Positions 38,858 through 41,423 of a stretch of 64,000 nt of DNA are shown here, in pieces. This DNA comes from a virus. Its lineage: Duplodnaviria > Caudoviricetes. The stretch lies in IMG/VR virus record IMGVR_UViG_3300032007_000017; one strand, 5' to 3'. The notes below the pieces were generated by a model, which saw only the letters and a program-made list of their open reading frames with translations, was not told the origin of the DNA and ran no database searches. Both the position numbers and the translations under genes were made by a program. Within the stretch, counting starts at the first letter, position 1. The number at the start of each line of letters is the position of its first letter.

Positions 38858-38892
38858 GGAAAAAGAAAGGGCTGTAAAAGCCCTTTCTTTTT

Positions 38893-41423
38893 TTAGAATT
38901 TAGGTACAGAAGTCTTACCAACAGCATCAGGAAGTTTGAGTGTTAAATTATAGATTGCTTGATAAGCTTCATTACCACAGTTACGAATCGGAGTTCCTCC
39001 CATACCAATAAGATTAAAGTTCTGATTCATAACATGCTCGAGTTCCTCATTAGCCTCATCTGTGTATATTGGTTTCACGGTAATCGTATCGCCATCGTAA
39101 TCTAGATTAGTAAATAGTATTTACGGTAAGATAAATATTATTTTTTTTTACTTAAGTTCGCAATTCTTAAGCGCTTTCGCTTCTCATACTTTCGTATGAG
39201 TATAGATCATATGTTCACCCTTCTCTTTCGAGTTAGGGGCAGGATTTTTCTTCTGCCGTAAGCTTGCAGTTCTACTCTCCCGTCAGGAGATGATCGTTGA
39301 ACCTTCACCATTTTACAGGCGAGTGGCTGCTGAATTCCCATTTGCGATACCTGAGTTTTAGGATTTAACCATGACCCATCCTAATTACTTTTTTCTACTT
39401 TCGTAACCATCACGCTTGCCTTTTCAAGCTACGTTGTGGTGAATTAGGCTTTAGGGATTGCCAGCAATTAACCCTGGAAACTTACTCATTACTGAATAAG
39501 CTGAGATTACCATTAGGCTACTCCATTAAGGCCATCGAGATACAAATTACAGATATTAGCCGAGTCTACAAACATATTGGATGTATTGTTTCCAATATCA
39601 TCCTGGCGTATATATGGATAATTCTTATAGAACTTTCCATCTATTACCATAGGCTCTGTTTTATTGGTAGAGTTTACATGGATTCCAATAGGAAATTGAT
39701 TGTAGATAGAATCTCAATTGTGTTCAACTAGGGTCGCTAATCCTAGCCCGCTTTATTCAAGCTGCACTATGTCACCATAGTAGTTCAGACTATATCACCA
39801 TCTCAGAGAGATGTTCCGCATTTCGACCCGCTTGGGCCTACGTCATAAAGACTAGTCGTTGAGCCTTCCTAGCACATCCTTTTACTCTAGGCTTGGTTGC
39901 TGATTGTCTCATTTTGAGAGTTTCCAGCAATTAACGGAATTTTCTTAATAGATCGCTCTATTAAGCCACGAATTCATGGGATATCTACATATAATAGCTT
40001 TACGACCTTCAGCAGCTTCTACAGTTGCAATATAGATCAGGTCACACCATGTAAACCAACGTTCAACAATAGGCATATTGCCTACACCAGATTCGTATTC
40101 TTCTTTAGTTACATTGAATCCTTTAAAATGAAGGTAGATCTTTCTACCATCAACAGTTTCAACTTCAATAGGAAGTAATCTGGTCGAATAACCATTGCAG
40201 AAACGGTTAAGTTCTTTACGCAATCTCTCTTCAGAAAATTGCATTTGATAGTCTTTAATATAGACTATCTCTTCTTTTCCTGTCTTGGGATCAATACAAG
40301 GAACTCCTTTATTTCCAGAGAAAGCGTTTTCAAAATACCTCTTCATATGGAAGATGACAAAAGGAGTAAAGTTTGCTGCTGCTGATGCAAGAGGAATGGC
40401 AGCATAATCCAAGTCAGCCTGCATGTCTTCGATCTTTTCAACCTTCAATTCAGGGGCTGACATAACAAGACGAGAAGCATAGTCGGTGGTCTTAGACATA
40501 ACAGAACGTCTAAGAACACCAAGCTTACCAGGAACATTAGGTCCTGTAGTAGTACCATTAATAGTAGTACCATTTCCAAAATAGTCAAAGATCTGAACAA
40601 TCGACATTTGAATACGACCACGAGTAGCTCCAGCCATATCCAATCCATAGTCAGTAGATTCTTTAAGAGCTTTAGTAGCGAGAATCAGATTACGATAGAG
40701 TTGATTAATCTCTCCGATAGAGATTCTGCCACCCTTAGATGTATCCACATCTCGTAATGCAGCAGGAATAACAACTATCTTTCTAATCCATGCACCAGGA
40801 TCTCGTTTACAAGCATTGATAAAATCAACGTCTTGATCTCTACGGATTGATGCTGTTCTTGCTACATTGATTTTCTCAAAGTTATCCTTTAAGAACTTCA
40901 ATCCAGTCTTACCGTGTTCAGGATCTTCTACCAATACTCCATTATCAGTAATGGAGAAATATTTCGTTTCATTAACACAAGCAGGAATCTTCTTATCAAG
41001 CTTAGACCATACTTTATAGAGTTCTGGACTCATAAACCACTCATGAAGATCAATATAAGCACAAGTGTTCATACGATCATACATAGTGATTCCAAAGATC
41101 TCATTGGATAATAGTCCATCTGAGGTAGGAATATTATTTCTAGAGAAAGTGATTGGATTGGTAATGGGCTTTAAATCATTAACCGAAACCAATCTATCTA
41201 CATCTAGAAGATTCACTCTCAGATGCTTAGGTCTCACTTGATTTCCATCTTCATACAGAAAGTTTTCAATCAAGAATCTCATGAAACCTTCTGCTTTATC
41301 TGCACTTTTTACTTTAGTAGGAGTATTATACCTGTCATCATAGTTTTCATGCTTGGCAAATAATTCAGGATCTTCATTTCCTAAATATCCACCATTTCTA
41401 ATACTATATGGTAAAATACCCAT
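38893..41423 (-). CDS. rpoC: phage RNA polymerase beta-prime N-terminal subunit; exons 41423-39976, 39714-39521, 39101-38893 (616 aa spliced)
   Basis: DGLLSNEIFG and GKLGVLRRSVMSKTTDYASRLV; splicing restores RYPI-DS and the catalytic NG-DYDGD in frame. Confidence 0.9.
39102..39520 (-). ncRNA. group I intron 2 (419 nt, no ORF)
   Basis: P AAUUGCUGGCAA, Q UUCAGCAGCC, R UCAACGAUCA, S CAUAUGAUCU; P3 CAGGGUU/AAUCCUG; GNRA-capped P2 and P9; terminal G. Confidence 0.88.
39715..39975 (-). ncRNA. group I intron 1 (261 nt, no ORF)
   Basis: P AAUUGCUGGAAA, Q AAUCAGCAACC, R UCAACGACUA, S GAUAUAGUCU; P1 CCAU/GUGG with U.G wobble; terminal G. Confidence 0.93.

Follow-up and report, generated by a model that had tools for sequence, protein, structure and literature searches.

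Can a group I intron choose its 5' splice site without a U.G wobble pair? Few features of group I introns are better conserved than the wobble at this site, which has a central role in substrate docking, and in the Tetrahymena intron its replacement reportedly impairs the first splicing step. As the pair is both highly conserved and central to docking, natural exceptions serve as test cases. The question was raised by a virion RNA polymerase (RNAP) beta'N-like gene at 41423-38893 (minus strand) of a 64,000-nt stretch of viral DNA, referred to below as the window. The gene is made up of three exons and two ORF-less group I introns, and the second of these (intron 2) interrupts the beta' DYDGD magnesium-binding motif, splitting its first Asp codon into G and AU. 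The coordinates of all features are collected in Table 1. Splice junctions are marked by an arrow (↓) and paired strands are separated by a slash.

Table 1. Features of the beta'N-like gene and of its second intron. Except for the window itself, positions are those of the window.
Feature	Position	Strand	Remarks
Window	G000:C1:9533-73532		within a 178-kb IMG/VR viral contig, rated about 72% complete
Exon 1	39976..41423	-	ORF; 3' end ...AGA UAU CCC AU↓
Intron 1, 261 nt, canonical group I	39715..39975	-	Rfam RF00028, 93.7 bits, E 8e-23
Exon 2 (194 nt)	39521..39714	-	reading frame; collinear with LPJP1, BpSp and L014; codes ..DSIYNQFPIGIH...NLYLDGLNG
Intron 2, 419 nt, ORF-less IA2 (Twort/IStron-type) group I	39102..39520	-	Rfam, blastn and helix check
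P1 extension hairpin, GCC-UAAU-GGU	39509..39518	-	internal loop with UA on one side, AAU on the other
Internal guide, GUAAUCUC	39503..39510	-	same place relative to P2 as the guides of relatives
P2, 8 bp, GUAA loop (CUUAUUCA-GUAA-UGAGUAAG)	39481..39500	-	
P7 5' strand, GAUCA	39291..39295	-	first G-C pair is the presumed guanosine-binding pair
P7 3' strand, UGAUC	39205..39209	-	
AU-rich inverted repeat	39113..39142	-	10/11 pairs; 3' tail after P9.2
Terminal G (omega G)	39102	-	sole G between 39124 and 39096; needed by every motif-restoring splice
Exon 3	38893..39101	-	codes (D)YDGDTITVKP...SVPKF and a stop codon

The interrupted gene

Exon 1 matched PHROG 2986 ("RNA polymerase beta subunit") at E 4.6e-57 over profile positions 8-407 of 539 and bacterial beta' chains in the PDB at E 1e-6. 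By tblastn it was 27-33% identical to beta' sequences of jumbo phages of the AR9/PBS1 type and others (29-33% for AR9 g145, LPJP1 and BpSp), and the AR9 match, g145, carries the annotation virion RNAP beta' N-terminal subunit. Exon 3 matched the far end of the same profile (positions 485-535 of 539, E 3e-5). The homology covers the beta' double-psi barrel and ends in the D-x-D-G-D metal-binding motif, which is whole only once the gene is spliced. As judged by these homologies, the gene is the N-terminal half of the beta' subunit of a jumbo-phage virion RNAP. Gene callers overlook it, leaving the 194-nt middle exon uncalled.

The exon junction fixes the predicted splice site of intron 2

Exon 2 ends in ...CUU AAU GGA G at 39521 and intron 2 starts with UAGCCUAAUGGUAAUCUCAG at 39520. 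The intron ends in ...ACUAAUCUAG at 39102 and exon 3 starts with AU UAC GAU GGC GAU at 39101. A first-pass annotation of this DNA had stated that removal of 39520-39102 gives NG-DYDGD, and the sequence reads as it described: the joined exons are CUU AAU GGA GAU UAC GAU GGC GAU, or LNG↓DYDGDT, at homolog length. Homologs that are intronless at this point read ALGADYDGDT (Listeria phage LPJP1), ALGGDYDGDT (Bacillus phage BpSp) and GLVGDYDGDT (the metagenome relative L014) with no difference in length. Across the intron-2 site the two jumbo phages read ..ALGADYDGDTLS (LPJP1) and ..ALGGDYDGDTVS (BpSp). L014, which is 71% identical, has an intron at the intron-1 site and none at the intron-2 site, where it reads CUA GUA GGU GAC UAC GAU GGA GAU (LVGDYDGD).

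All in-frame, stop-free combinations of 5' sites from 39600 to 39481 with 3' sites from 39200 to 39041 were then enumerated (n=2308). A terminal G together with D[YF]DGD was kept in only 10 of the 2308 splice pairs, all 10 used G39102 with a G at -1, and homolog length was kept by 39521↓39101 alone among them. No U-ending exon restored the motif with a terminal G among the 2308 pairs, and a canonical U.G site for intron 2 was rejected as neither a search by hand nor the exhaustive enumeration gave a restoring pair. The earlier claim that the 5' splice site is a G-C pair and not U.G was therefore supported, the sole motif-restoring, terminal-G, homolog-length splice being the one that follows G39521, which is paired with C39505.

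Three registers yield the same mRNA: G at -1 and G at the intron end, A at both of these positions, or G at -1 and U at the intron end. Only the first of them has a terminal G. The first-pass annotation was correct that a register with A at the 5' site and a terminal A exists; it had taken this for the only other one. To our knowledge, all known group I second steps require a terminal G in the P7 site.

Intron 2 has the anatomy of a Twort-type IA2 ribozyme

The Rfam match, the helices, the blastn matches and the homolog junction all agreed with the first-pass call of a group I intron inside the RNAP catalytic motif. Alignment to a group I model bore this out in part: in a local search over 1.3 kb, RF00028 matched 39529-39183 at E 1e-6, with a score of 34.2 bits that is below the gathering score of 50. 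The alignment recovered P3 to P9 and skipped a P5 extension of roughly 110 nt. Rfam's own P1 was rejected after comparison with relatives, as it takes half of P2. By complementarity we found P2, P3, P4, P5 with its long extension, P6, P7, P7.1, P7.2, P8, P9, P9.1 and P9.2, and thereby the features of group IA2: a P3-P8 core with the P3/P7 pseudoknot, P7.1/P7.2 and an extended P9. The 48-nt tail contains no ORF. P7 (GAUCA/UGAUC) forms five Watson-Crick pairs and retains the G-binding G-C pair as G39295-C39205, as had been noted from the letters.

In distant mode, blastn returned 161 phage records with a best E of 5e-32, most of them from Staphylococcus Twortvirinae and from phages of Enterococcus, and the core of intron 2 was 60-78% identical to Twort/IStron-type introns. 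The helix set and these matches together identify intron 2 as Twort-type IA2. The Twort-type IA2 introns of Staphylococcus and Enterococcus Herelleviridae are homologous to it (E down to 5e-32) and have the same long P5 extension and P7.1/P7.2. However, four examples of them (Romulus, EF1TV, PT94 and Koomba-kaat) have a U.G 5' site, unlike intron 2. In Staphylococcus phage Romulus (JX846613, 8520-10227) an IS605 OrfB transposase is annotated after the Twort-type intron of the portal gene, which makes this an IStron-like arrangement in a cultured Staphylococcus phage.

The guide matches the spliced junction and P1 has no wobble pair

The internal guide was said to be the exact complement of the spliced junction GAG↓AUUAC just before P2, and it is: GUAAUCUC is its reverse complement at 8 of 8 positions and ends 2 nt upstream of P2. 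CUC (39505-39503) pairs with the exon GAG to form P1 and GUAAU (39510-39506) pairs with the 3' exon AUUAC to form P10. By our own arithmetic, with roughly 13 positions open to it before P2, an exact 8-mer would arise by chance about twice in 10,000 cases.

P1 of intron 2 consists of three exon pairs only and has no wobble pair. The first intron base, U39520 (+1), faces U39506 at position -6 from P2, the place held by the wobble G in the two sister introns of the same phage (L205 and L206), and the -1 G (G39521) pairs at position -5. Relative to the canonical sisters, cleavage would therefore occur a single pair further down P1, towards its base. One phage genome thus has three sister introns, two with a U.G site and intron 2 with a G-C site one step nearer the helix base. 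In the four canonical relatives (the Romulus portal gene, EF1TV, PT94 and Koomba-kaat) the guide is in the same place and forms 4-5 pairs including the U.G.

The P1 extension hairpin covaries in 7 introns (GCU/AGC, GCC/GGC, GCC/GGU). We suspect the conserved UA/AAU internal loop next to it to be what allows the site to be recognized without a wobble. The exon sequence GCCUUAAUGG (39524-39533) recurs as GCCUAAUGG (39518-39510) in the P1 loop, by chance or as an exon relic, and this second copy largely coincides with the conserved hairpin. The direct repeat was considered as an alternative splice site and rejected because it leaves an in-frame UAA stop.

Other introns share the P1 of intron 2

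The build of P1 is common to intron 2 and six other introns from viral contigs and bacterial MAGs, and runs from exon NNG through (U/A)A, a 3-bp hairpin, AA(A)N, a 3-nt guide and AG to P2. Exon and guide show compensatory changes in the six relatives (GAG/CUC, GCG/CGC, AAG/CUU) while the -1 G-C pair is invariant. Four of the six sit in the terminase gene of jumbo phages at ..IERNG↓GFGAS. At this point the terminase of the window phage itself has no intron and reads ..IERNGGFGAT (AAU GGU GGU UUU), which argues that the base after the G in these introns (U or A at +1 in L077 and L104) is intronic too. More distant terminase homologs (BpSp, PB50) were rejected as a junction reference on account of a one-residue difference in length. 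In the beta'N-like gene the predicted cut is preceded by the seven exon bases AAUGGAG (39521-39527), and the same seven precede the terminase introns L077 and L182, where they likewise code N-G. This identity hints at guide-matched movement between genes, though beyond the three paired bases it could be due to chance.

A further relative was found in the gene of a divergent family A DNA polymerase (L009:8774-12741, on a viral contig of 17.5 kb). It is a G-type intron whose P1 loop contains an endonuclease-like ORF. Here only CAGGG↓ in combination with the terminal G of AAAUG↓ gives ..EARIQGHY.., whose E-x-R-x-x-x-H spacing we take to be that of family A polymerase motif A. A PDB search with the C-terminal 200 residues of the first exon and a Pfam scan of all of it returned no match, and Pfam matched only the downstream part of the gene, so the motif A alignment is a putative one. 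What looks like an intein (CLASDTELL...) lies 25 codons downstream of the G-type intron in the same gene.

Two other features were considered as correlates of the G site. A link to P7 GAUCA was rejected because L206 combines GAUCA with a U.G site and most copies resembling group B IStrons (described below) combine GACUA with a G; as judged by sequence, P7 GAUCA/UGAUC is a lineage marker unrelated to the G site. A difference in J4/5 was rejected as an adaptation to the G site because L009 and another of the relatives, L008, retain the J4/5 of U.G introns. A loose pattern scan of viral contigs gave 105 candidates, 7 of which passed the filters, and the matches were mostly due to chance. The same intron at the same site was found neither by megablast against phages nor by a protein scan of viral contigs, and a metagenome scan for it returned one relative, without intron 2.

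Kinship with IStrons provides a precedent for splicing after G

In IStrons an IA2 ribozyme is joined to an IS200/IS605 or IS607 element, and they fall into two groups (Tourasse, Stabell, Kolsto 2014, NAR 42:12333, PMC4227781). In group B the last exon base is a G and the junction U belongs to the element. A one-pair shift of the U-G pair, with an internal loop after it, was predicted there, and RT-PCR demonstrated that BcISt1 and other group B IStrons splice after the G with U as the first intron base (PMC4227781). Group B elements insert after sites ending in GG and have the 3' end CGG, with the exception of CsISt1, which inserts after AG and ends in CAG, and ORF-less IStron copies retain an AU-rich inverted-repeat stem downstream of P9.2 (PMC4227781).

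Intron 2 resembles group B (BcISt1 of the Bacillus cereus group, LsISt1, CsISt1, CbISt) in being IA2 with P7.1/P7.2 and an extended P9, in the G at the exon end, the U at the intron start and the internal loop right after the site, and in the AU-rich stem downstream of P9.2; ORF-less copies exist there as well. It inserts after GGAG and ends in CUAG, which is closest to the exception CsISt1, the two sharing insertion after AG and differing in their ends (CAG versus UAG). In contrast to group B, intron 2 has no IS607/IS605 ORF, its P7 is GAUCA instead of GACUA, and it interrupts an essential phage gene at the catalytic motif whereas group B elements are multicopy and scattered in the bacterial genome. 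In group B the +1 U usually faces G or A while in intron 2 it faces U, and the published picture of a shifted U-G pair therefore does not transfer exactly.

The P7/P7.1 pattern was found in 82 stretches of bacterial genomes, many of them multicopy in Lysinibacillus, Clostridium, Pectinatus and others. These multicopy stretches have GGG↓UAA junctions and CCC guides, the published look of group B. The intron 2 core is closest to that of L164+ (78% identity), which shares the G-type P1 and precedes a TnpB-like ORF with an IS605 OrfB helix-turn-helix domain at its N-terminus.

The two sister introns of the same phage lie outside the window. Their cores are 72-75% identical to that of intron 2 and they have the same P2, P7.1, P7.2 and P9; unlike intron 2 they have an ordinary U.G 5' site (GUGU↓/GCAC). 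L206 (G000:C1, about 147,900-149,800; 72% core identity, P7 GAUCA) is a full IStron with a TnpB of 421 aa (PF07282, PF01385, PF12323) in a host gene that is weakly RecA-like. L205 (G000:C1, about 146,200-146,800; 75% core identity, P7 GGUCA/UGAUC) is ORF-less, and its 3' tail carries a long AU-rich inverted repeat. Homology was also seen between the tail of intron 2 (the 39142-39113 hairpin) and the stretch before TnpB in L206. Taken together with L164+ and the phage's own TnpB IStron, this tail homology makes intron 2 look like an ORF-less member of the IStron lineage.

The relatives with the same P1 and the published RT-PCR of group B support the G-site reading and make it credible. A habit of splicing after G is not unprecedented, and intron 2 would be a new example of a rare documented class.

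Proposed mechanism and alternatives

From the junction and the relatives we infer that intron 2 works as an ORF-less IA2 ribozyme, belongs to the Twort/IStron lineage and cuts after G39521, a reading to which we give a probability of roughly 0.8. In the first step free guanosine would attack the phosphate between G39521 and U39520 while the 5' exon is held by a P1 of three base pairs (GAG/CUC). With the exon held in this way, the cut would follow a G-C Watson-Crick pair and the U that usually ends the exon would become the first base of the intron. In the second step the terminal G39102 would sit in the guanosine site of P7, with P10 (AUUAC/GUAAU) and a P9.0 of two base pairs (UA/UA) aligning the 3' exon. 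The ligation product would be AAU GGA GAU UAC GAU GGC GAU, with the junction AATGGAGATTACGATGG.

If cleavage were instead to follow U39520, with a U-U pair in place of the U.G, ligation at G39102 would give GGAGU↓AUUAC (junction AATGGAGTATTACGATGG) and truncation before DYDGD, and the gene would be dead or decaying. The position of U39520, opposite -6 from P2 where L205 and L206 have the wobble G, speaks for such a cut. However, the guide would match at 7 of 8 positions versus 8 of 8 for GAG↓AUUAC, and an essential virion enzyme would be lost, yet its exons are intact and collinear with homologs. The terminase and DNA polymerase introns face the same problem with the same solution, and BcISt1 was shown to keep the U in the intron (PMC4227781). 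We therefore regard cleavage after U39520 as unlikely.

Identical ligated sequence would also result from the other registers, in which the exon ends in ...GGA and the intron in ...CUA, or the exon in ...GG and the intron in ...UCU. The run of three Gs at the 3' end of the terminase relatives makes a register with A or C at -1 compatible with a terminal G there, but in intron 2 the other registers would leave a terminal A or U, against the terminal-G requirement, and would reduce P1 to 1-2 bp. We consider a shifted register very unlikely. Just as improbable is that the G site is an assembly or sequencing artefact or intron 2 a non-splicing relic in a defective genome: the source is a single metagenome-derived contig, about 72% complete, in which a single-base junction error could occur, and no second copy of the allele was found in viral contigs or in one scan of metagenome contigs, but the arrangement of exon G, intron UAGC and guide recurs in independent contigs and one base change would not give a canonical site that also restores the Asp.

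Cleavage after G39521 would make intron 2 an unusually clean exception to the wobble rule, as an invariant catalytic motif and the one register with a terminal G pin its junction to a single position, and the canonical sister introns of the same genome would act as built-in controls. It would also take splicing after G beyond the transposon-borne IStrons of bacteria, to an intron that has no ORF and that interrupts an essential jumbo-phage enzyme at its active site. A wider and more doubtful proposal is that one scaffold follows two 5' site rules and makes guide-matched jumps between essential genes, by reverse splicing or TnpB-assisted integration rather than by endonuclease homing. If it did follow two rules, the site information would lie in the P1 internal loop (UA/AAU) and not in the catalytic core, and wobble-independent site choice would be widespread in IStron-type phage introns.

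Other introns in jumbo-phage RNAP genes

The homologous vRNAP beta'N gene of Bacillus phage AR9 (g145, a three-piece join, 29% identity) also has a group I intron within DYDGD. It is located 8 nt downstream of the intron 2 site at DYD↓GD (GAU↓GGU) and differs in having the canonical U and a homing-endonuclease ORF near its 5' end. The upstream intron of g145 is a group II intron after RYPIEQYR, giving a second intron near RYP as in the window. In PhiPA3 the gp210 intron interrupts the gene of a vRNAP beta subunit, where it is placed at two Asp codons (Birkholz et al. 2024, PMC11620839). Like intron 2 it is a group I intron at a conserved Asp of a jumbo-phage virion RNAP gene, but the subunit is different, the intron carries an HNH homing endonuclease used in phage-phage competition, and no unusual splice site was reported (PMC11620839).

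Intron 1 has a P1 of CCAU↓/GUGG with a U.G 5' site and a terminal G at 39715. It splits RYPI↓DS, and its ends were placed from the reading frame and this junction. The L014 intron near the same site is about 1.2 kb and appears to hold two ORFs, and the group II intron of the AR9 homolog lies a few codons downstream of the intron-1 place. At the other end of the gene, a G+C-rich hairpin (AAAGGGCU-UUUAC-AGCCCUUU, at about 38858-38892 of the window) with A and U runs on either side adjoins the stop codon. It lies between convergent genes and looks like a bidirectional terminator.
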